A DNA stretch of 64,000 nucleotides from Haliotis cracherodii. Its lineage: Eukaryota. The stretch is taken from NCBI RefSeq assembly GCF_022045235.1, contig NW_027266266.1, positions 186,001-250,000 of the forward strand. Reading direction: 5' to 3'. A model generated the notes under the pieces. That model was not told the DNA's origin. It did no database searches and saw nothing but the letters and a program-made list of their open reading frames with translations. Shown here piece by piece: positions 10,839 through 43,499 of the stretch. The translations under genes and the position numbers were made by a program. Numbering within the stretch: position 1 is the first letter of the stretch; each line of letters starts with the position of its first letter.

Positions 10839-13800
10839 TTATAGAAAGTCATCTCTGTACCCAAAGGGGAGCGTGTCTACAGGCAGTCCTGTGGTTTCGT
10901 CGTAGACGAGACGTCGCTTGTCGTACACGGTACGATAGTTTTTTCGGGTGGGTGGGCTCACAAGAGCATTTTCGTGCCGAGGTCCTTTTCGAATGATCTG
11001 ATGAGGATAATCCAAACTGATTTTCTCGCCCTCTTTCCCAGGCCGCTGTCCCAGTATCAGGCCTTTCATGATGTCAAAGTTGAGATGTTGTTGGTTTCGG
11101 TAATTCCAAGTGAACCCTCGCACTTTGCAGGTCGTGTGCGTTCCATCGGGTCTGGGGTTCATTAACTCATTGCCATAGTTCTGGGGGCCTCCTGACACAA
11201 ACGTCTTGATGGTGTTTCCGTCCAGTTCATTTGTAAACTCACCCAACGAATGGCCCAGCTCTGGATTCGCGTCGTGGGGTCGATGAATGTAAATGACGCT
11301 GTCTGTGTCAAAGTACAAGACCCTGCGATCCACCAGAGCAAGGGTCTCGTACAGCTTGAGACGTGCTTGGGCGGTGACCCAAGCAGCGATGGCGACATTG
11401 AAATGAGAATGAGGGGTTTGGAATTCCTTCTGCTGGGTATAGGTCACTTCCACCATGTGTTCGTTGACAACGGTGACATCCTCGATGGTATTGCGTTCAT
11501 CCCTCCACAAGGTAAGGTACTGTAAAGGATCGTTCATATAGACGTTCTGACTGTAGTCTACCCGTTGTCCAAATTTGCCCCAGAGCGAATTCATTTGTAT
11601 CTTGGCAATTGTGCCGCGTCCTGGATTTTTTTCGATGCGGTCCTTGTCCAACTCAATGCCTTCTTGTCGTAGATCTCTGGATGTAAGCGTCGTGATCCGT
11701 ATATCCCTCAGGGTATCCGCTGGCTTCGAGCTTCTCCTTGAAATGCCGATCGATGTAAGTGTCAAAGAGTCCCACTTGCTGGGTGTCGGGATCATGCTGT
11801 GCAAAGGTGTCAAAATGCCAAATGTCGTAGATCTGAAGCACCTGGTAGTCATACTTCTTCACGGCTTCCTGGAGTTCTACGGTTGCGTACGTCCCCACCC
11901 ATGATCTCTGTAAGGCAGTAGCGGATGGTAGAGTCGTTTCGGGGGTAAGACACGGCATTGGATCAGTTCTTTCAGTTCAAACAATGCGTCCACAGGGGGT
12001 TGATGGAGAAGGGTCGGGTGTCCCGTGGGAAACGCTCTGGTCTTACAAATGTATGGATAAAGGGAACAAATATCGATGCATTTGATGGTTTCACCTTCTT
12101 GGGCTTCGTAGCACAATCGCGTGGCATTGGTGCGCCCTCCATAGAAGGCGTCGCGAGGGTTGAGCGGCCCGGGGACGTGGATACAGTGGGGTCCCTGCAA
12201 GAAAGCACGCAGAGCAGAGTCCCCCCGTTGCATTTGTGTAAACTCGTGCTCCCACAGGGTGACGATCCGTTTCACCTCAGGGTGTTGACTCAAGAGACCC
12301 AAGCAGTAGTGGATGTTGGTGTAACGGGCTCCCAACGACGTGCCCAGGATGGGATGTGGTTCTCCACGTTGGGTCTTGTGACAGGCCTGGCACCCATGCC
12401 AGAAACAGCCCAGGAATTCGTAGACGGTACCTGTCGCTGGATCGTAGCCATCCACACTGTACCGATGTTGGCCCTCTCCACAGGTGAACTCTTTTTCACC
12501 ACCATTCCTGGCATGCTGGAGGTGCAGATGGGGGTCCCTTTCCATCAGATATTGGAGCCAGCGCATACAGGCTTGGGAATAGTTTCTCTTGGGCTGGTAG
12601 CCTTGAGGTGGAAGAATGGCAATGGTATTGGGTTTCAGGTCGTGTTTTCGGAAGGATTTCATGGTGAACGCAGCAGCTGTCATCACTTCTACAAAGGGAT
12701 CCATGCCAACCGAGTTGATGGCGTTCTGTCGGAAGTCAGCACATCCCCGTCTCAAAATGTCCACATCGCTCTGGCAGAAGGCTAAAAAATCTCCTTGTAA
12801 GTCGAACAAGGCTCCTTCTTGCACTTTTTGGGTATGCCACTGGAGGAAGACTGTACGTTCTGCGGGAGACATGCCATCAGGATCGTACATGACGGCTGGT
12901 GGATAGACACCACTCTAGGTCTGGTTGGCTTCGGTATTGAAAAAGTGCGGAAAGTACCCTTTTTCAGTTCTTTCAGCCCAAAGCTCTTGGGAAATGTTTT
13001 CAGGGTGTAAGGGATGAAATTTAAGCTGTCTTCGAAACACAACCGTCCCAGGGTCACCTGCAGAATCTGTTGTCCATGTCGAATCTTGGTGGGGAGTTTC
13101 ACCAGAAGGGGGTACAGACCCTTTAGGATCAAATGTAGATCATAGGATCGTGCATTATGGGCAATCACATAAATGCGATCCTCCTGGACTGTTGTGGTGG
13201 TGCTCTTGTTCTTTGGCGTCTTTGTTTTCTCCACTTCCATGACCTCTTCCCCCTCCACCTCTTCCATCTCCTCCTGCTGGGGTGATGCATGTCGTTGACG
13301 TTTGGAAGCGTGGATTCTTGAGGGGGTTCCATCCTGTTTTCTTTTTTTCCCCAGGCCTCCTGTTGTCCCCTTGCGTGTGCTGCCCTCCTCTTCCTCTTGG
13401 TCCTTGTTCTTCTTGGTTTTTTCAGACAGCGTGGTCAACCACACACACACATCATGGCGCGTGGTGGGACCTCGAAACACGATCTCACGGCTGGGACCAT
13501 ACCCTTCTTCTCTCCATGGACAGTGTTCGCACTTCACTGATGCACCATCCACATCCAAGTTGCACCACCCACAAATTTGGAATGTGTTCCCCCGTGTCTT
13601 GCATACATTCAAAATCGTAGAATGCGTATTGGACGTCGTCTCGTACGTGATGTTGTTCCTCTTCCCCCTCTTCCTCCACCTCTTCCTCACCCTCTTCTTC
13701 CCCCTCCTCGTTTTCTTGAGGCGTCATGTAACAGCGATGGTCTGGTGTCATGGGTTCTCGACACACCAAGCAGGGATGTTCTTCATCGGAGCACTCGTGA

Positions 13801-14943
13801 TGAACCATGGGGGTCTCCAAGACGCGGACCAGCTGAAAACAGACCGGACACCTGTGAATCGATTGACAGGCGCTGGGTTTTCCCTCTGACGGTGACTGGA
13901 GATGTTGGGTGTAACACTGCTGATTGGGGAACCAACGTTGACATGTCAAGCAAGGGATCCCTTGCTCTTCCTTAGGTCCGCAATAGCTAGAGTGGAGGCA
14001 ACGGTGACAGCGGTATTGCTTGGTGCAGGGGTGTTTTTCGTGATGATCGTAACGTTGGTCGCAGTGTTCGCAGTAATGGACAGACCCGTCAAAAGCGGAC
14101 ATGGAAGTGATGACATCATAGTGCTGATCATGATGATATAAATGCAGTACGGTGGCGTGGGGTGGAGCCTCATCACACTTGTACAACAGTCTCTTGACAG
14201 TAGACTTTCAGTTGATAATTCAGGGAGGCCAAGGCCCGTCCCACGCGTGTGAGGTCGTCCAGACCTTGACAGGGACCTTCAGGCAGGCCAAGGCGTCGAA
14301 ACAAGACCCGTGCCGGTATGCCTTGAACGTCGGCCCGATCCGTTCTCGTCAGTCTCATTCGCCAGGCGGTCCATTCTGGGGTCAGAGGATGGGGCTTCTG
14401 GGCATAATGTTGTGCCACCACCAGGGCTCGTGCCAAACAGGATTGATCTTCGTTCTTGATCCTTACAATGGACCGTTTGCGTGTTAAAAAGGCTTCGAGT
14501 CCAATCACGTTTTTCAGCCTGGGACCTCCACTGCCCGATCCTAGCCTGTCGGGATCTGCGACGTGTACTAAAGTCACAACCATGGTGGCATCGATGTTCA
14601 GGTCTTTGTTGGACTGTTGGAATTTTTCCACGGCCTGTAAAATAATTAGCCTATGGAGATCTTCAAAGTGACGAAAGGGAATCCGTATGGGGGTGTTCAA
14701 AGTGGGATGATCGATACCTAGACCAATACGATCTCCCTTCTGGCCTGACATCTGTTGATAAAAGTCATCGATCACTCTGTCAAATAAAGCTGGTAGTTCC
14801 ATGGGAGCGCGGTCCGGTGGTACGGTGTCCAAGTAGTCTGGGTTGAAAGTCAAACGATAGGTATGGTTAGCAGTTCTTAACTGCCTGGAGCGGGTGATAT
14901 CTTTCCTCTCCAAACGATAGGGCGTACTTTGGTTGCTCGTCAT
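10839..14943 (-). pseudogene. polB: Protein-primed family B DNA polymerase (Polinton pPolB with N-terminal OTU-like/zinc region and VSR-like insertion), disrupted
   Basis: Likely ATG at 14943 (MTSNQ). Motifs in order: IKNEDQSCLARALVV, HYDVI plus CxxC cluster, ExoI YDFEC, ExoII AHNARSYD, DSLNF, ExoIII FCQSDV, VDGYD..YEFLGCFWHGC insertion, YGGRT, DICSLYP, KIQMNSLWGKFGQ, YFDTDS. About 5 frameshifts (~14190, ~13540, ~12955, ~11895, ~11680) and an in-frame TAG near 12916. Confidence 0.92.
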
Positions 14944-15024
14944 GATAGCGGTGTGTGTCTGATGAACGTTTGTACTACAAGAGGGGCTGAACGTCTGATT
15001 GATGGACAACCCTTCCCCAAAACA

Positions 15025-15310
15025 GGATCGAAATTTGACCAATCAGAAACCTGGGTTGTCGACCAATCAGAAGACAGCACCGACCAATGGTAAAATCCAT
15101 TTCCTATGGAAAAGAAACACAAGGGTCGGGTCGTTTTGGAAAACCGAGGTGCAGGCCAGGCACCGGAACGAACCAATCAGTGCGCTGCGTTTTGGGCCAA
15201 CCAGGAAGCAGCGAGTTTCGATCCGGTTCTTCTCCTATAAAACAAGAGTGGATTCGAGCGGGTCAGTGTCACTTGTAAAATTTTATTTTATAAAATCAAG
15301 AATTGCTGAA
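15025..15310 (+). promoter_or_regulatory. Repeated Polinton promoter cassette, copy B (divergent region between pPolB and the BIR gene)
   Basis: Four CCAAT boxes (~15039, 15063, 15084, 15173), TATAAAA at 15236 and a TCAGT initiator-like motif at 15263. Homologous to 16812-17133. Confidence 0.7.
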
Positions 15311-15391
15311 ACAAAGAAGAGTGGTACGACGACGGGTGGCGGAGACGTGGTGACGGATAGTGCAGATACTCGTGGATGTTGGAGTAAGAGT

Positions 15392-15763
15392 ATGGATGTT
15401 GAGGATGGGATACCATCGCTCAGTAACACGCCATTGACCTATTTTCTACGGTTTGAAAGAAGGCTCGCTTCGTTTGAGACGTGGCCTACGCAAATGAACC
15501 AGACTGGTGAAGAGATGGCCCATGCGGGCTTTGCCTACACAGGGGGTGCCGATGGCGTGTACTGTTTCCAATGTGGGGTGCGGCTGAGACGATGGGCGCC
15601 CCACGACGATCCTTGGGTGGAACATCACTGGTGGTCCCCACACTGTGACTACCTCAGACTAACAGGTCTTGTGAAACACAAGAAGAAGCTACAACTACGC
15701 TATCTCCGTGAGGAGAATGTGAATCAGAAGAACACGAATGGCGTAGCACGGCTGGATGCCTAG
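15392..15763 (+). CDS. Single-BIR-domain inhibitor-of-apoptosis-like protein (123 aa from first ATG)
   Basis: RLASFETWP..EMAHAGFAYTG..DGVYCFQC-x16-H-x6-C is an exact BIR Cx2Cx16Hx6C signature. No RING. The frame is open upstream to an ATT at 15302. Confidence 0.9.
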   Translation: MDVEDGIPSLSNTPLTYFLRFERRLASFETWPTQMNQTGEEMAHAGFAYTGGADGVYCFQCGVRLRRWAPHDDPWVEHHWWSPHCDYLRLTGLVKHKKKLQLRYLREENVNQKNTNGVARLDA

Positions 15764-16060
15764 GAGGGCGACGTTTCCCGTGTCCTGTGTTCCTGTTCAA
15801 GTTCCCGTTCCAGTTCCGGTTCAAGTTCCCGTTTGTCTACTGCTGTTGTTGTGGATGGTTCAGTCTGTTTCCGCTTCCTGTTTCCTACAAGCTTTTCTTT
15901 TGTTGGACCCCACAAGTGTTGGCACATAGGGCACCCCGATGACATACCCAGATGGTATACCCAGATGACAGCAAGTACCGTTTCGACGATCCTTGTCTTG
16001 TCATAAGCTTGGACATGATGATTCTTCTTGGACAGCAGCAGAAAAGTTTTCTTCTTTCCC

Positions 16061-16105
16061 AAAACGGCCCTTTTCAGGGCCACCCATCTCACCCAAAAGA
16101 CAACT
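16061..16105 (+). terminator. Histone mRNA 3' stem-loop plus downstream element, copy 2 (perfect consensus)
   Basis: AAAAC-GGCCCT-TTTC-AGGGCC-ACCCA-TCTCACC-CAAAAGACAAC, stem at 16066-16081. AATAAA follows at 16192. Confidence 0.85.
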
Positions 16106-16811
16106 TTCATCCCTTGCTTTGCCAAACAACGACAATCCAAAACAAAGAACCCACACCCTCCCCTTAGACCTCTTGGAGGCACACGTGTAAAAATAAAATA
16201 AATAGATATAAATATAAATATATAAATAGAGACACGTGGTACACTACGTGTGCATGGAGACACGAGTCAAACATCACGTGTGCATGAAAACACGTGTCGC
16301 AGTACGCCTGTCGACTTACACGGGTGTCAACACCTCGGTATCATTAAAGAATCATAATGATAATTTGAAGACACACACACACACACACACACACACAGGA
16401 CACGACGTTTGCATCACGTTGGTGTATTGATCTTTCTCTATTCATCTCAATACTACATCCATGGTTGTAGTCACACACACATACATACACGGGGCATCAC
16501 GACATTTTGCCTGACAACATGCGTGAAACACTTCGTGTACCTGGTAACACGTATGACAGTACACCCGTCAACCTACACGAGTGTCAGCACCTCGGCATCA
16601 TTCATAATAATAATAATAATCATTCTATGGATCAACGTAAACGTCTGTTTGAAGACAAACACACACAGAACATTCCGATTGGCATGGGAGTAACACAACG
16701 TACATCACGTAAGCATTCTTACATCACGTTCATGCCTACTTATGACGGTCCACCTTAAGCATTCAGACGACCATCTACCTAAAAATACCAAGGCTACCCA
16801 AGAAAAAAACC

Positions 16812-17133
16812 GGATCGAAATCTGACCAATCCGAAGCCTGGGTTGTCGACCAATCAGAGGCCGCGCTCGGACCAGGCTGGGCTCTCACTGGCCGAACCGG
16901 GGTTGTGCTTTCTCTCCCATGGTAAAATCCATTTCCTATGGAAAAGAAACACAGGGGTCGGTCCGCTTTGGAAAACCGAGGTGCTGGCCAGGCACCGGAA
17001 CGAACCAATCGGGGCTGCGGCCTGGGGAACCAACCAAGAAGCAGGGTGTCAGTACCTCTCCTATAAAACAAGAGTGGATTCGAATGGATCAGTCACTTGT
17101 AAAATTTATTCGAAAAATCAAGAATAACTGAAA
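16812..17133 (+). promoter_or_regulatory. Repeated Polinton promoter cassette, copy C
   Basis: CCAAT boxes, CCTATGGAAAAGAAACAC core, CTATAAAACAAGAGTGGATTCG TATA region and TCAGT. Lies upstream of the Cys-rich ORF. Confidence 0.7.
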
Positions 17134-17447
17134 ACTGGGATCTGGAGCTAGCCTCAGTGGTGCACCCTTTGCCACTGTGCAAAGGGTGTCGCTCGGAGTT
17201 GGAGAAGAAAGAAGCAGTACCGCCATTGCCATTGCCTCCACCATGGCAATGCGGTACATGCCAAGGGGGCCTGCCTGTGTACGCCCTTGGCACAAAGGCA
17301 TGGGATGGAACATTTCAATGTGTGTACTGTAAGACCATCCTCAAGGACACCTACGTGCGGCGGTTAACGCACACCGGTAGGTGTCCTGTGAGGAGACAGA
17401 TGAATGTCCACCCGTGCCTTTGCACCGCTGCGTGCACTTGCATGTAA
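17124..17447 (+). CDS. Polinton Cys-rich (three CxxC plus terminal Cys cluster) zinc-binding-like protein; no upstream ATG
   Basis: Open frame from ATA 17124: CKGC..PPLPLPPPWQCGTC..CVYC..CLCTAACTCM*. It sits between promoter copy C and a histone stem-loop 10 nt after the stop. Confidence 0.6.
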   Translation: MTENWDLELASVVHPLPLCKGCRSELEKKEAVPPLPLPPPWQCGTCQGGLPVYALGTKAWDGTFQCVYCKTILKDTYVRRLTHTGRCPVRRQMNVHPCLCTAACTCM

Positions 17448-17452
17448 GCATC

Positions 17453-17498
17453 AAAACGGCCCCTTTTCAGGGCCACCCATCTCACCCAAAAGACAACT
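17453..17498 (+). terminator. Histone mRNA 3' stem-loop-like signal, copy 3 (in right TIR)
   Basis: AAAAC-GGCCCCT-TTTC-AGGGCC-ACCCA-TCTCACC-CAAAAGACAAC, with one extra C in the 5' stem arm. Confidence 0.75.
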
Positions 17499-17975
17499 CT
17501 CATCCTTTGCTTTGACGACCCTCCAACCCAAACCATGAACCCGTCTCCTCCTTTCCTCCCTCCCTCCCTTCCCTCCCTCCCTTCCCTCCCTCCCTACACC
17601 ACCGGCACCCCGTCTATGTTTAGAACAACAACGACAACAACAAACGATTTTTGACGCGCTTCTTTCAATGTCGATCCCGTTCACCTTTTACGTGCGCTTC
17701 TCCGGGGTTTCCCCTATCCTCCCCGGAAACGGAGGCAACGCCCTCTTGGAGGCGTGCGCTACCGGACACGGAAATGCTGCCATCTTGGATGTGCACGCCA
17801 CCGGAAATGGAAGTGCCGCCATCTTGGAGGCGTGCGCCACCGGAAACGGAAGTGCCGCAATCTTGGATGCGCACGCCACCGGAAACGAAAGTGACGCAAT
17901 CGTGGATGCGCGCGCCACCGGAAACGGAAGTGCCGCCATCTTGGTTCTGGTTCCAGACCGATGCACACACCTACT
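17455..17975 (-). repeat. Right terminal inverted repeat of the Polinton
   Basis: Reverse complement of 7678-8199 with substitutions, one more 39-bp unit and shorter microsatellites. Confidence 0.93.
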
Positions 17976-18344
17976 ACAGACAGTACTAAGGCGTTGTGAA
18001 TTTTGCTATGTGAAAACAACAAATTTCGCCACCTTTAAATTTTCGCCGATAAAACTACTCTGGGATGAACATCATTATTGACAGCTTTATGTAAACTGTA
18101 AGCGAAGCTGATACTTCATGTTTTCTGAACGACATACTTGTATCTCAAATGGAGTTGTAAGTTTATATATGACGTCACACATGTATTTTATTGTTAAACC
18201 ATTTTTGTAACTGTATTATATTGTTTCTGCTGCGATTCGGTAGAAGCTCATTGCATTGTATTTGGACATTGATTAGTTGTCAGGAATGTAGTACTATTTA
18301 ATTACGGAATGTAAGAAAGTTTCTATATTTAGATGATAGTGCTG

Positions 18345-36100: not shown

Positions 36101-39100
36101 ACCTCATCACACAGACTTCCTGACACTATGGCCTGCGTTCAGTAGGCTTACCGCTGATAGTTTATCCACCACTCTCTTTCTGTTTACAGCATGACGTTCT
36201 GCCCACTTACGTGTGGTTCTGTTAGGCCTGGGGGAACGGGTGGCCCAGTCGTCTAAGGCGCCGTAATTCGCTGTGCAGAGTTGCGTCCCTTGGGCACGCC
36301 AGACCCTATGATTGTGGGTTCGATATCGCGGTTCGCCCCAATTATGATTCTAGGTTTGTCAGCGCCATACCCGTGCTCGTGGGTTTCACCGAAGTGGGTT
36401 TCACCGAAGTGGTAAACGTCTGAGACCCGCATCTCTTCGGGCTTTCCTCCCACATTAAGCTGTCACGTCGCAATATAACTGTAATACTGTTTAAAGCGGC
36501 TTTAAACCCAACTCACTCACCTATGTGGCATCATCTTGAATCTACACCATTGTGTTGTAATGCTCTTCAACTGTCGAACTATGGGAGGTACCCATCCTGT
36601 CTCCCCAGTCACTGCTGCGTTAGGTGCATACCTTCCTAATCCCAGGAAGTACCTGATCGCTTGACTCTGTACCACATACAAGATATATCTGAAGTCCCCA
36701 TAAGGCCACCCCGTAGTTCAGGGTTGACCATACCATGCTGTCATGATGTGTAAAGGAGTTGAAAGGGATACCACCCAATGCTTTTGTTTTTTGCTATTAA
36801 TAGTCCCAAAGGTCTACTAGCAGTATTCCCGCCATGGCCCAGACAGTTACATTACTGAGTGGCAGTCTCTATCTTCACGCTGTTGGTGTACAGCGGGTGT
36901 TGCGTTCTCTGAACTGACGGGTTTCTGAAGTGTACAACCTTCTCTTCTGCTTATTCTGATCACGCAGTGATTAGTAGTATATGTGTAGGCATGCGTGATG
37001 ATTGGCTGTCATTCCCACATACCGCGTGCTAGCCACGTGATCAACACACCTACTACTATATCACCCAGGCTCTTTGAGTCAATATTTCAATCCACGCTCT
37101 AAATTAAACGCTTTATGGAAAACGCTGTCATCGACGTTCATGGCCCAAATTGTCACACCTACTCATCCTGACATCAGTCACACCTACTCACCCTGACATC
37201 AGTCACACCTACTCATCCTGACATCAGTCACACCTACTCACCCTGACATCAGCCACACCTACTCACCCTGACATCAGTCACACCTACTCATCCTGACATC
37301 AGTTACACCACCTCATCCTGACATCAGTTACACCACCTCATCCTGACATCAGTCACAACACCTCATCCTGACATCAGTCACACCTACTCATCCTGACATC
37401 AGTTACACCTACTCACCCTGACATCAGTCACACCTACTCACCCTGAGATCAGTCACACCTACTCATCCTGACATCAGTTACACCTACTCACCCTGACATC
37501 AGTCACACCTACTCACCCTGACATCAGTTACACCTACTCACCCTGACATCAGTCACACCTACTCAACCTGAAATCAGTCACACCTACTCAACCTGAAATC
37601 AGTCACACCTACTCACCCTGAAATCAGTCACACCTACTCACCCTGACATCAGTTACACCTACTCACCCTGAAATCAGTTACACCTACTCACTCTGACATC
37701 AGTCACACCTACTCATCCTGACATCAGTCACACCTACTCACCCTGACATCAGTCGCACCTACTCACCCTGAAATCAGTTACACCTACTCACCCTGACATC
37801 AGTCATACCTACTCACCCTGACATCAGTCACACCTACTCACCCTGACATCAGTCACACCTACTCACCCTGACATCAGTCACACCTACTCACCCTGACATC
37901 AGTCACACCTACTCACCCTGACATCAGTCACACCTACTCACCCTGACATCAGTTACACCTACTCACCCTGAGATCAGTCACACCTACTTACCCTGAAATC
38001 AGTCACACCTACTCACCCTGAGATCAGTCACACCTACTCACCCTGAAATCAATACCACCTTACCCTGAGATCAGTCACACCTACTTACCCTGAGATCAGT
38101 CACATCTACTTACCCTGAGATCAGTCACACCTACTCACCCTGAAATCAATACCACCTCACCCTGACATCAGTCACACCTACTCACCCTGCAGTCAGTCAC
38201 ACCTACTTACCCTGAAATCAGTAACACCTACTCACCCTGACATCAGTCCCACCTCACCCTGAAATCAGTCACACCTACTCACCCTGAAATCAGTCACACC
38301 TACTCACCCTGAGATCAGTCACACCTCACCCTGACACAAGTTACACCTATTCACCCTGAAATCAGTCACACCTACTCACCCTGACATCAGTCACACCTAC
38401 TCATCCTGACATCAGTCACACCTACTCACCCTTAGATCAGTCACACCTACTTACCCTGAGATCAGTCGCACCTACTCACCCTGAGATCAGTCACACCTAC
38501 TCACCCTGACATCAGTCACACCTACTCACCCTGAGATCAGTCACACCTACTCACCCTGAAATCAATACCACCTTACCCTGAAATCAGTCACACCTACTCT
38601 CCCTAAAATCAGCCACACCTACTCACCCTAAGATCAGTCATACCTCACCCTGCCATCAGCCACAACTACTCACTCTGAAATCAGTACCACCTACTCACCC
38701 TGAGATCAGTCACACCTACACACCCTGAAATCAGTACCACCTTACCCTGAAATCAGTCACACCTACTCACCCTGAGATCAGTCACACCTACTCTCCCTAA
38801 AATCAGTTACACCTACTCACCCTGCCATCAGCCACAACTACTCACTCTGAAATCAGTACCACCTTACCCTAAAATCAGCCACACCTCACCCTGTCATCAG
38901 TCACACCTACTCATCCTGACATCAGTTACACCTCACCCTGAAATCAGTTACACCTCACCCTGAAATCAGTTACACCTCACCCTGAAATCAGTTACACCTC
39001 ACCCTGAAATCAGTTACACCAACTCACCCGTTCCTATTTTCTGGGTGAGGAGCAGGAAGTCGGGTCGGTCGCTGAACACATCCGCTCGCTTCATGAGCAC

Positions 39101-39370
39101 CTCCTGTATCCGGGCATAGCCGCTCACCACCACGATGTGAAGCCTGCCGAACGTCAGACTGAAGACGTCGCCCAATTCCACCGCCTGCTTCATGAAGGCC
39201 TCTGGAAGCCTGCCTCTGTTGGCACTCAGCTGCAACATGTTCCCCACCACCGGCAGCCCACGTGGTGACGGGGGTGGGTTCTCGGCACGAGTCAGGACAT
39301 TGTAGATTATTACAAAGGCCACAAGAAACACCAGCACAGTCGGCAGATCGAGGTATTCCAACAAGCCCAT
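23503..39370 (-). CDS. Cytochrome P450, CYP2 clan, 8 coding exons, 488 aa
   Basis: Exons 39370-39028, 33341-33116, 30506-30380, 30258-30102, 29602-29466, 26716-26620, 24793-24590, 23678-23503. All introns are GT-AG and phase-consistent (1467 nt). Motifs: N-terminal TM plus PPSPRGLPVVGN, WKDLRR, I-helix AGTETS, K-helix EIQR, NPDRF, heme motif FSAGPRVCAG. Confidence 0.92.
23692..23945. repeat. ~17-bp AT-rich tandem repeat next to the CYP exon 8 acceptor
   Basis: GAATATATCATCC(A/G)TT-like units. Confidence 0.85.
24078..24606. repeat. 60/46-bp tandem repeat copying the CYP exon 7 end and splice donor
   Basis: Minus-strand units contain CCCTTCTCTGCTG|GTAA. Confidence 0.9.
24935..26640. repeat. 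54-bp minisatellite (~31 units) derived from the CYP exon 6 end and splice donor
   Basis: Unit GTCACTCTTACCTATGGTGG(T/A)TATTGTCCGTATCTTAGTGTAGATTTAACATAA. Confidence 0.95.
27105..27957 (+). pseudogene. Tc1-family DDE transposase remnant (intronic)
   Basis: VLFSNESRF, DNARPHTAR and WPSLSPDLKPIEYLWD motifs with frameshifts and stops. Confidence 0.85.
29250..29408 (-). mobile_element. tRNA-derived SINE (family B)
   Basis: Minus head GGGGCGGTCGGATAGCCTGGTGGTTAAAGCGTTCGCTCG and (ACTC)n tail. Copies at ~34835-34910, 49545-49703, 51095-51243 (-), and a related head at ~59015(+). Confidence 0.75.
30586..32562. repeat. 51-bp minisatellite, ~39 units (CYP intron 2)
   Basis: Unit ACTAACATGTACCCGTACAACAGGCTCCAGGGTAGGAAGGACTCAATCTAC. 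Confidence 0.95.
35459..36134. repeat. 53-bp minisatellite, ~13 units
   Basis: Unit ACCGTCCCACCTCATCACACACAGACTTCTTGACACTATGGCCTTCATTACA(T/C). Confidence 0.95.
37152..39027. repeat. 25/22-bp minisatellite starting at the CYP exon 1 splice donor
   Basis: Unit GTCACACCTACTCACCCTGACATCA. The minus strand contains CAGG|GTGAGT in most units. Confidence 0.95.
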
Positions 39371-39574
39371 GACTGCTGCCCTGGGTCAGCGCACTGTGCC
39401 CGTGTCATGTGACGAAACACAAGGAGGCAGATAACAATACCCTGGTTCAGTAAGTGGGTTGTCGCGGTTGTCATGGCTGTGGCTGGGGACACTTGGTGGA
39501 GATGGAAAATACTGGGGTGAAGAATGAGATGGGGAGAGGGGTGGACACAGCGTACCCAGGGAACTAGGCCGGGC

Positions 39575-42348
39575 GGAGAGAGAGTTGGAGAGAGTGGTGG
39601 AGAGAGAGAGTTGGAGAGCGTGGTGGAGACAGAGAGAGTTGGAGAGAGTGGTGGAGAGAGAGAGAGTTGGAGAGAGTGGTGGAGAGAGAGTTGGAGAGAG
39701 TGGTGGAGAGAGAGAGTTGGAGAGAGTGGTGGAGAGAGAGAGAGTTGGAGAGAGTGGTGGAGAGAGACAGTTGGAGAGAGTGGTGGAGAGAGAGAGAGTT
39801 GGAGAGAGTGGTGGAGAGAGAGAGAGTTGGAGAGAGTGGTGGAGAGAGACAGTTGGAGAGAGTGGTGGAGAGAGAGAGAGTTGGAGAGAGTGGTGGAGAG
39901 AGACAGTTGGAGAGAGTGGTGGAGAGAGAGAGAGTTGGAGAGAGTGGTGGAGAGAGACAGTTGGAGAGAGTGGTGGAGAGAGACAGTTGGAGAGAGTGGT
40001 GGAGAGAGACAGTTGGAGAGAGTGGTGGAGAGAGAGAGAGTTGGAGAGAGTGGTGGAGAGAGAGACAGTTGGAGAGAGTGGTGGAGAGAGAGAGAGTTGG
40101 AGAGAGTGGTGGAGAGAGAGAGAGTTGGAGAGAGTGGTGGAGAGAGACAGTTGGAGAGAGTGGTGGAGAGAGAGACAGTTGGAGAGAGTGGTGGAGAGAG
40201 AGACAGTTGGAGAGAGTGGTGGAGAGAGACAGTTGGAGAGAGTGGTGGAGAGAGAGAGTTGGAGAGAGTGGTGGAGAGAGAGAGAGTTGGAGAGCGTGGT
40301 GGAGAGAGAGAGAGTTGGAGAGAGTGGTGGAGAGAGACAGTTGGAGAGCGTGGTGGAGAGACAGAGAGTTGGAGAGAGTGGTGGAGAGAGAGAGAGTTGG
40401 AGAGAGTGGTGGAGAGAGACAGTTGGAGAGCGTGGTGGAGAGAGAGAGAGTTGGAGAGAGTGGTGGAGAGAGACAGTTGGAGAGAGTGGTGGAGAGAGAG
40501 AGTTGGAGAGAGTGGTGGAGAGAGAGAAAGTTGGAGAGCGTGGTGGAGAGAGAGAGAGTTGGAGAGAGTGGTGGAGAGAGAGAGAGTTGGAGAGAGTGGT
40601 GGAGAGAGAGAGAGTTGGAGAGAGTGGTGGAGAGAGAGAGAGTTGGAGAGAGTGGTGGAGAGAGACAGTTGGAGAGCGTGGTGGAGAGACAGAGAGTTGG
40701 AGAGAGTGGTGGAGAGAGAGAGAGTTGGAGAGAGTGGTGGAGAGAGACAGTTGGAGAGAGTGGTGGAGAGAGAGAGAGTTGGAGAGAGTGGTGGAGAGAG
40801 ACAGTTGGAGAGAGTGGTGGAGAGAGAGAGTTGGAGAGAGTGGTGGAGAGAGAGAGAGTTGGAGAGAGTGGTGGAGAGAGAGAGAGTTGGAGAGAGTGGT
40901 GGAGAGAGAGAGAGTTGGAGAGAGTGGTGGAGAGAGAGAGAGTTGGAGAGAGTGGTGGAGAGAGACAGTTGGAGAGAGTGGTGGAGAGAGAGAGAGTTGG
41001 AGAGAGTGGTGGAGAGAGACAGTTGGAGAGAGTGGTGGAGAGAGAGAGAGTTGGAGAGAGTGGTGGAGAGAGACAGTTGGAGAGAGTGGTGGAGAGAGAC
41101 AGTTGGAGAGAGTGGTGGAGAGAGACAGTTGGAGAGAGTGGTGGAGAGAGAGAGAGTTGGAGAGAGTGGTGGAGAGAGAGACAGTTGGAGAGAGTGGTGG
41201 AGAGAGAGAGAGTTGGAGAGAGTGGTGGAGAGAGAGAGAGTTGGAGAGAGTGGTGGAGAGAGACAGTTGGAGAGAGTGGTGGAGAGAGAGACAGTTGGAG
41301 AGAGTGGTGGAGAGAGAGAGAGTTGGAGAGAGTGGTGGAGAGAGACAGTTGGAGAGAGTGGTGGAGAGAGAGAGTTGGAGAGAGTGGTGGAGAGAGAGAG
41401 AGTTGGAGAGCGTGGTGGAGAGAGAGAGAGTTGGAGAGAGTGGTGGAGAGAGACAGTTGGAGAGCGTGGTGGAGAGACAGAGAGTTGGAGAGAGTGGTGG
41501 AGAGAGAGAGAGTTGGAGAGAGTGGTGGAGAGAGACAGTTGGAGAGCGTGGTGGAGAGAGAGAGAGTTGGAGAGAGTGGTGGAGAGAGACAGTTGGAGAG
41601 AGTGGTGGAGAGAGAGAGTTGGAGAGAGTGGTGGAGAGAGAGAAAGTTGGAGAGCGTGGTGGAGAGAGAGAGAGTTGGAGAGAGTGGTGGAGAGAGAGAG
41701 AGTTGGAGAGAGTGGTGGAGAGAGAGAGAGTTGGAGAGAGTGGTGGAGAGAGAGAGAGTTGGAGAGAGTGGTGGAGAGAGACAGTTGGAGAGCGTGGTGG
41801 AGAGACAGAGAGTTGGAGAGAGTGGTGGAGAGAGAGAGAGTTGGAGAGAGTGGTGGAGAGAGACAGTTGGAGAGAGTGGTGGAGAGAGAGAGAGTTGGAG
41901 AGAGTGGTGGAGAGAGACAGTTGGAGAGAGTGGTGGAGAGAGAGAGTTGGAGAGAGTGGTGGAGAGAGAGAAAGTTGGAGAGAGTGGTGGAGAGAGAGAG
42001 AGTTGGAGAGAGTGGTGGAGAGAGACAGTTGGAGAGAGTGGTGGAGAGAGAGAGAGTTGGAGAGAGTGGTGGAGAGAGACAGTTGGAGAGAGTCGTGGAG
42101 AGAGAGAGAGTTGGAAAGAGTGGTGGAGAGAGAGAGAGTTGGAGAGAGTGGTGGAGAGAGACAGTTGGAGAGAGTGGTGGAGAGAGAGAGTTGGAGAGAG
42201 TGGTGGAGAGAGAGAAAGTTGGAGAGCGTGGTGGAGAGAGAGAGAGTTGGAGAGAGTCGTGGAGAGAGAGAGAGTTGGAAAGAGTGGTGGAGAGAGAGAG
42301 AGTTAGAGAGAGTGGTGGAGAGAGAGAGAGTTGGAGAGAATGGTGGTG
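39575..42348. repeat. Purine-rich ~30-bp minisatellite (GAGA..GTTGGAGAGAGTGGTG)n, 2.8 kb
   Basis: Direct inspection. It is the source of the long spurious ORFs. Confidence 0.95.
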
Positions 42349-43499
42349 ACTCTTGGTCTGCCGGGGCTGACTGACGTCCATGGTACAATTGTTTGGTTGT
42401 TGTTTTTGTTTGTTGTTTCACGACGCACTCAGCAATATTCCAGCTATATTATGGCGGTCTGTAAATCGGGACCAGACAATCCAGTGATTAATACCGTGAG
42501 CATCGACCCACGCAACTGGGATACGACATGCATCAACCAAGTCAGCGACCCTGACCACCCGATCCCGTTAGTCGCCTCTTACTGAAGTCGAATGCAGGGC
42601 AGATCTTCACGGGTTCCATGGTGGGATTAACCGACGTTACACTGCCCAGAACAGCACCGGAATGTTCAGGTTAAATGCGAGATGTCCTGGCAATTAAACC
42701 ATTCCATGTCAAAATTAATTCCCATGGTTAAGAAGAGTATTTTAGTAAGCATCGTTAAACCAAATGTATTTCTATATGTAGTAGATCTTTAAATCAGTAT
42801 CGTTTGGTAAAAGTCTAGAGTCCTTGAATATATTATGGATTCCAAGGTAAAATGTGTATTTCATAAAAAATCACTGACTTTGTTTTTTATGAAATGTGGA
42901 ATATTAGATTACTTACAATGTTGAAACAATGTCAGATATCAACGTTTTCTTTTTCAAATCTGGAAAGGCCAATGTTGACACTATGTATTTCAACGCAGCA
43001 GCATCAGATCATTCAAATGTCAACGTGGAAACAATGCCTGGTGCCCCCAGAGTCGGGAGTCTGTAAAAACTGATTGGAAACTTTCAAAAAATTTAACCTG
43101 GCAAATGAAAGTATACCGTGCTTGTTTTTTATGTCATTGAAAATTAAGAGAACTTTTCTTGAATATGAATATGTCTATTTCACCATTATTCATTTGGTAC
43201 AGGCAAACAGTAACCTCTGGCTAGGTAATGCAGGGTAATGCTGGGTAATATTAAATTGGTTCAATGAAGACTGGGGTTAGAAACGAAGATGCAATCACAC
43301 GCCCCCAACCATGTTTGAAATGTTGTATATTTGTGCCGAAAAAGCAAAACTTATTTATTTACAAAGATTCTACCATACGCATCAGTAGTAACTATTGTGT
43401 ATTATGCTATTGTTTATTCATTTTTAAAAGTTAGTTATCTAATTATATTTTTAAAAAAAACATAAAACCATGTAGACGTATTGTTTGAATGCTGACTTA

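Follow-up and report, generated by a model that had tools for sequence, protein, structure and literature searches.

A Polinton-derived element in Haliotis cracherodii carries three copies of a module that joins a histone-type stem-loop to a downstream AAAAGA element, and we put at roughly 0.6 the probability that small accessory genes use these modules as SLBP/U7-type 3′ ends, with the location of two of them at the edge of the TIRs being a by-product. The host SLBP/U7 snRNP/CPSF73 machinery would then cleave the accessory-gene mRNAs directly behind ACCCA, and their production and decay would probably follow those of histone mRNAs, in S phase as the pPolB (protein-primed family B DNA polymerase) replicon copies itself. 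What the sequences show directly is the match to the histone signal, the HDE spacing, the position of the hairpins after stop codons in this as in other mobile elements, and their independence of the TIRs in relatives. In the accessible part of PMC2781718, histone 3′-end processing is said to require the stem-loop together with a purine-rich HDE, and the stem-loop is called ‘unique to histone mRNAs’. If virus-like elements or DNA transposons truly used the stem-loop/U7 pathway, the pathway would become a host-parasite interface, and mobile elements would gain an S-phase-coupled, poly(A)-free mode of expression that poly(A)-selected RNA-seq would largely miss. A literature search that left aside supplements, Repbase reports and subscription journals did not turn up any paper that describes histone stem-loops in Polintons or transposons, and the word ‘hairpin’ does not occur in the accessible part of an article on adintoviruses and Polintons (PMC8502044).

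Architecture of the element

The window, by which we mean the whole stretch of 64,000 nucleotides, contains the element at positions 7678–17975 (10.3 kb; AGTAG at the start, CTACT at the end), flanked by an identical hexamer at 7672–7677 and 17976–17981 that constitutes a 6-bp TSD. The TIRs measure 522 bp on the left (7678–8199, minus strand) and 521 bp on the right (17455–17975, plus strand) and their alignment has 462 matching and 19 mismatching positions, not counting gaps; the left one comprises 39-bp tandem repeats, microsatellites and, at its inner edge, a hairpin module. Complete Polintons/Mavericks likewise end in long TIRs (AG...CT) and are flanked by a 6-bp TSD, and the element further shares with this group (which includes the adintoviruses) a Polinton-type PolB and accessory genes near the ends. 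The PolB gene occupies 10839–14943 on the minus strand in several broken frames, three fragments of which match Pfam PF03175, and its nearest relatives reside in Haliotis (∼90% identity) and, at ∼40% identity, in oysters, corals and a coral adintovirus. The element differs from Polintons in its size and in that integrase, ATPase, capsid and protease went undetected: Pfam analysis of 10 window ORFs returned no RVE integrase, packaging ATPase, capsid protein or protease, and tblastn of 11 non-PolB proteins (integrase, ATPase, capsid-like, protease and others) from two full Polintons, L137 and L148, gave 0 matches in the window, so that, judged by its sequence, this is a Polinton-derived, pPolB-only element.

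The 39-bp TIR repeats (7709–7890 and 17723–17944) contain motifs similar to the binding sites of YY1 (AAGATGGCG), ETS/GABP (CGGAAGTG) and NRF1, and similar motifs occur near the end of Polinton locus L148. A Haliotis gene model (P0027) starts within TIR sequence and continues into pPolB, and the TIR may thus act as an inward promoter or origin enhancer. Outside the element, the window holds a 51-bp tandem array to its left (6000–6509) and a long region of extreme, inverting GC skew at ∼37000–43000.

As the initial annotation had it, genes of the left arm point leftward and those of the right arm rightward. The candidate outermost gene on the left is a putative 91-aa ORF (8339–8614, minus strand), the C-terminal half of which resembles the basic/acidic linker of pPolB (77% DNA identity between 8380–8461 and 13261–13345, with a protein match as well), and this gene was possibly built from the element's own pieces. 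Inside it lies a cysteine-rich accessory gene (9169–10347, minus strand) that is probably spliced and has many Haliotis homologues; its cysteine-rich end is tandemly duplicated (9169–9452, minus strand, 161-bp spacing). On the right, a BIR-domain ORF (15002–15763, plus strand; domain at ∼15461–15655, PF00653, E 2e-22) probably has its true start downstream of a TATA box at 15236. It is followed by a small cysteine-rich gene (17130–17447, plus strand), which in the window copy has no ATG at the expected start and for which neither Pfam nor Atlas provided a family. A full HMMER scan recovered 6 homologues of this protein (best E 3e-15), and the 5 inspected end at the same place, near the same cysteines.

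A promoter module of ∼250 bp with CCAAT boxes is present in three copies. One, at 10568–10779 on the minus strand, has CCAAT boxes and AAGAAACACA but no TATA box; the second (15019–15311, plus strand) has both of these and the TATA at 15236; the third (16801–17133, plus strand) has a TATA at 17062, and relatives diverge from it before 16806 and after 17068/17093. An extra fragment of the module lies at 8479–8511. In relatives, the module shows very high contig depth and sharp edges. We take the H1 box of histone H1-type promoters to be AAACACA; the H1-box-like AAGAAACACA is found in 3/3 promoter copies of the element, whereas the H1 box itself is found in only 1/2 H1 and 2/8 H3 upstream regions from the loci collected here. 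The H1 box is named in the accessible part of PMC12240685.

Hairpin modules and the inner edges of the TIRs

The internal module (16060–16121, plus strand) consists of a perfect stem-loop (16066–16081), ACCCA (16082–16086) and an HDE-like AAAAGA (16095–16100); it has the 6-bp stem, 4-nt loop and flanks of the Rfam family Histone3 (RF00032), and its 36.8 bits exceed the gathering score of 34 bits. Both TIR copies fall below that score. The right one (17455–17493, plus strand; irregular stem-loop 17458–17474, ACCCA 17475–17479, AAAAGA 17488–17493) reaches 25.7 bits and the left one (8162–8199, minus strand; stem-loop 8196–8181, ACCCA 8180–8176, AAAAGA 8167–8162) 26.6 bits, both stems have a flaw in their second pair, and the left hairpin folds at the level of shuffled sequence (z −0.05). 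Three hairpin matches occur in the 64-kb window, compared with 0.21 expected, and 0 of 100 shuffles reached three. The AAAGA of the element begins at offset 11 after ACC, which is the histone median, and together with the Rfam match this spacing bears out the previous identification of the hairpin as a histone-type 3′-end signal; the signal includes an HDE-like element. Like the 3′ end of metazoan replication-dependent histone mRNAs (RF00032 plus HDE, served by SLBP, U7 snRNP and CPSF73), the modules have a 16-nt stem-loop, AAAC/ACCCA flanks and a purine-rich element ∼10 nt after ACC, and they accompany CCAAT/TATA promoters and apparently intronless small genes. They differ in that the genes lie within a mobile element and encode not histones but BIR and cysteine-rich proteins, and in that two of the three stop-to-hairpin distances are long in the window copy. 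The right-arm stop precedes the AACGG flank by 7 nt, but the stops of the putative left ORF and of the BIR gene precede their hairpins by 139 and 299 nt, respectively, compared to 7–51 nt in histones; these two distances and the imperfect stems of both TIR copies argue against the 3′-end reading.

The stem-loop had been described as the inner boundary of both TIRs, and indeed the homology ends at AAC, 3 nt 5′ of the stem (8199 and 17455), with only 22 matches in the 60 nt further inside. A third copy of the same TIR segment behind the BIR gene was likewise verified by alignment, 16060–16121 being 95% identical to 17452–17514 of the right TIR, with a weaker tail to ∼16165. The proposal that each arm runs into a TIR-borne processing signal applies to the outermost unit of each arm, but not to the inner genes: the left-arm cysteine-rich gene is followed by same-strand ATTAAA/AATAAA poly(A) signals (9035, 8878 and 8873), and the BIR gene has its own hairpin with AATAAA beyond it at 16192/16197. 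Since the outermost genes point outward, their shared 3′-end signals are the innermost sequence that is identical between the two ends. End-homogenisation, by a panhandle or by template switching, would copy everything outward of the signal and stop at gene-specific sequence, and the hairpin at the TIR edge would then probably be a by-product, a coincidence of modest interest once explained in this way.

The initial annotation had drawn a different conclusion from the same geometry, namely that the TIR hairpin is a terminator selected to keep Pol II away from the terminal, protein-primed origins and that the TIR was the source of the internal copy. The feature that it rested on is real, and in favour of this idea boundary and hairpin coincide within 3 nt at both ends, the outermost units face outward, and neither TIR contains AATAAA/ATTAAA within 520 nt after the hairpin. 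We consider such selection unlikely, as the damaged copies here are precisely those of the TIRs and as hairpins elsewhere track stop codons rather than TIRs (see below). A Haliotis gene model (P0004) that spans the left-arm gene into the TIR also points the other way, although, as a prediction, it gives only a weak hint of read-through. Protection from read-through may be a side benefit of the TIR hairpin. Very improbable, in our view, is an action of the palindrome at the DNA level, as a single-strand hairpin or a recombination anchor that sets the TIR edge: while this would account for the coincidence of boundary and hairpin, the strand-specific AAAC/ACCCA flanks and the HDE fit recognition at the RNA level, and so does the position of the hairpin after stop codons in other elements.

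Histone-type hairpins in Polintons and DNA transposons

Clear hairpins were detected in 3 of 19 loci related by pPolB, using a pattern that took in loop and terminal-pair variants and that gave 0 matches in 20 runs on shuffled sequence. Two of these loci, L137 and the closely similar L146, are full Polintons (with ATPase, integrase and protease recognized by Pfam in L137), each with three hairpins located 19–30 nt after the stops of small genes, one of them with a compensated terminal pair; in L148, an Rfam match with an HDE lies 28 nt after a C2H2 zinc-finger ORF. The remaining 16 of the 19 loci, most of them partial, showed no clear hairpin, and pPolB searches of viral contigs yielded 2 weak loci, both without hairpins. 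L148 also encodes TBP. The Polinton-like contigs L137–L153 come from bacterial MAGs yet resemble animal elements, and they are probably host contamination.

The L137 element (G001:C47) is a distant relative, with a PolB 35% identical to that of the window, and it separates the hairpin from the TIR. All its hairpins face inward, away from the TIR, the nearest lying ∼1.45 kb inside the TIR edge, and the gene that points outward into the TIR is followed by AATAAA rather than by a hairpin.

The hairpin is not confined to Polintons. A metagenome scan for the exact 22-mer was evaluated on the best 141 of ∼240 stretches, which represent 130 distinct contexts; among these matches, 67 of 130 contexts lay behind histone ORFs and 63 were without a histone gene. 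The 22-mer thereby corresponds to the common histone hairpin of invertebrates. For the histone contexts among the matches listed, the purine block begins ∼10 nt after ACC, with a median AAAGA offset of 11 (31/67). Retaining the 57 of 63 listed non-histone contexts with at least 290 nt of upstream sequence (6 were dropped) left 39 families, 23 of which have an ORF (60 codons or longer, or running open to the edge of the locus) that stops 5–60 nt upstream of the hairpin, at a median of 26 nt. The same count gave 54 of 55 (median 27 nt) for the histones among the matches listed, while random positions averaged 3.4 and never exceeded 8. Purines occupy 4.5 of the 6 HDE offsets 10–15 in the listed non-histone contexts, compared to 5.0 in histones and 1.9 at upstream offsets. 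Where the flank extends over just 300 nt, a few of the non-histone families could represent H1 tails that escaped recognition.

Several of these ORFs encode transposases. Pfam assigned Tc1/mariner DDE_3 to L040 and L069 above the cut-off and to L033, L035 and L038 below it, and ISXO2/Merlin transposase to L028; other names at hairpin loci were P2RX7_C proteins, a Mutator-like transposase (one locus), a zinc-finger protein and a GDSL protein. At L044 (1236–1398), a piggyBac-type transposase, with a stop-to-hairpin distance of 80 nt, is followed by seven tandem histone hairpins at 24-nt spacing. A candidate TIR pair was recognized in 5 of 10 regions with cut-and-paste transposons, and in 5/5 of these, among them Tc1/mariner and Merlin loci, the hairpin is located behind the stop of the transposase and outside the TIR, which again speaks against selection of the hairpin as a terminator within terminal repeats. 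IR-DR Tc1-like transposons do have a poly(A) signal within the TIR, and thereby resemble the abalone element in embedding a 3′-end signal in a terminal repeat; they differ in that the signal of the abalone element is a histone hairpin, which in the Tc1/mariner loci examined is outside the TIR. A family of contigs (L025, L026, L029, L048, L055, L058–L060 and L071) carries several small unnamed hairpin-ended genes near zinc-knuckle ORFs, a layout that resembles the accessory region of L137. Comparison of the non-histone hairpin loci with the proteins of 17 Polinton-relative loci gave no match. Viral contigs contained no match to the strict hairpin pattern; 11 loci found with a looser pattern were treated as chance, as they had no ATG-ORF stop within 100 nt, no Polinton protein and no Rfam Histone3 match.

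With a hairpin just behind the genes of unrelated transposons, it appears likely from these sequences that mobile DNA borrows the 3′-end pathway of histone messages. We entertain a wider proposal more tentatively, at somewhat less than even odds: that invertebrate mobile DNA (Polintons, Tc1/mariner, Merlin, piggyBac-type and Mutator-like elements) repeatedly took the SLBP/U7 3′-end pathway for S-phase timing or oocyte loading, that, among the genes carrying the canonical hairpin, non-histone clients may rival histone genes in diversity, and that the small genes of the abalone element were built from portable promoter and 3′-end cassettes.

Related copies and apparent reuse of modules

Contigs from sequencing runs that cover 17330–17544 rise 15–20-fold in depth over 17461–17493, the hairpin and HDE, with a two-base variant in about half or more of that depth, and near-identical sequence must therefore be abundant elsewhere in these genomes, possibly in host histone arrays. 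This abundance and the damaged stems of the window copy would be expected if the module were an inert 3′ flank of a host histone gene, captured once and spread by recombination of the element without any function. We hold this to be improbable, however, because unrelated families of elements repeatedly place it 14–41 nt downstream of stops together with an HDE and because most relatives are free of the irregularity of the window copy: DNA-run depth without the right-stem irregularity amounted to 898 of 1,095 (X5) and 589 of 693 (X10), so that the irregularity is probably confined to the window copy or to a minority of copies.

Two contigs guessed to derive from RNA bridge the hairpin (X7 record 20, covering 16021–16186, and X14 record 11), which reflects equally well read-through to poly(A) sites, such as the AATAAA ∼105 nt downstream of the internal hairpin, or DNA in the runs. 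Such contigs, that AATAAA and the seven tandem hairpins of L044 would suit a hairpin that is not a U7 site but an SLBP decoy, or a tag that gives polyadenylated or non-coding transcripts stability, translation or storage in oocytes. This alternative strikes us as rather unlikely, since the HDE-like purine block retains the spacing needed for cleavage and, according to the accessible part of PMC2781718, is relevant only to U7-dependent cutting. None of the sequencing runs that carry this sequence is registered as RNA, and a transcript end at ACCCA was not seen among the assembled contigs, a kind of data in which such an end would not show. The low-depth contigs of X7 gave no cover over 17159–17720, and X14 record 10 stops at 17493, a branch point of the shared core and not ACCCA; both are neutral as to expression and transcript ends.

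The relatives also bear on the suggestion that the hairpin segment was copied internally as a portable 3′-end cassette. The junction between right-arm gene and hairpin recurs in contigs of three organism labels (X5 record 21, X10 record 4 and X14 record 10), and the AAACGG flank is preceded by a variety of unlike sequences joined to it (X5, 11 contigs; X10, 5 contigs; agreement ∼0.6). In light of these multiple joins and of the sharp edges of the promoter module, the element looks, as far as sequence can tell, to have been assembled from reusable promoter and 3′-end modules. The portable character of the cassette is thereby upheld; copying may have gone from the TIR inward, as suggested, or the other way. 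In other contigs, a TTCC-rich run directly precedes the hairpin, as in the left arm, and ∼240 nt before the hairpin are absent.
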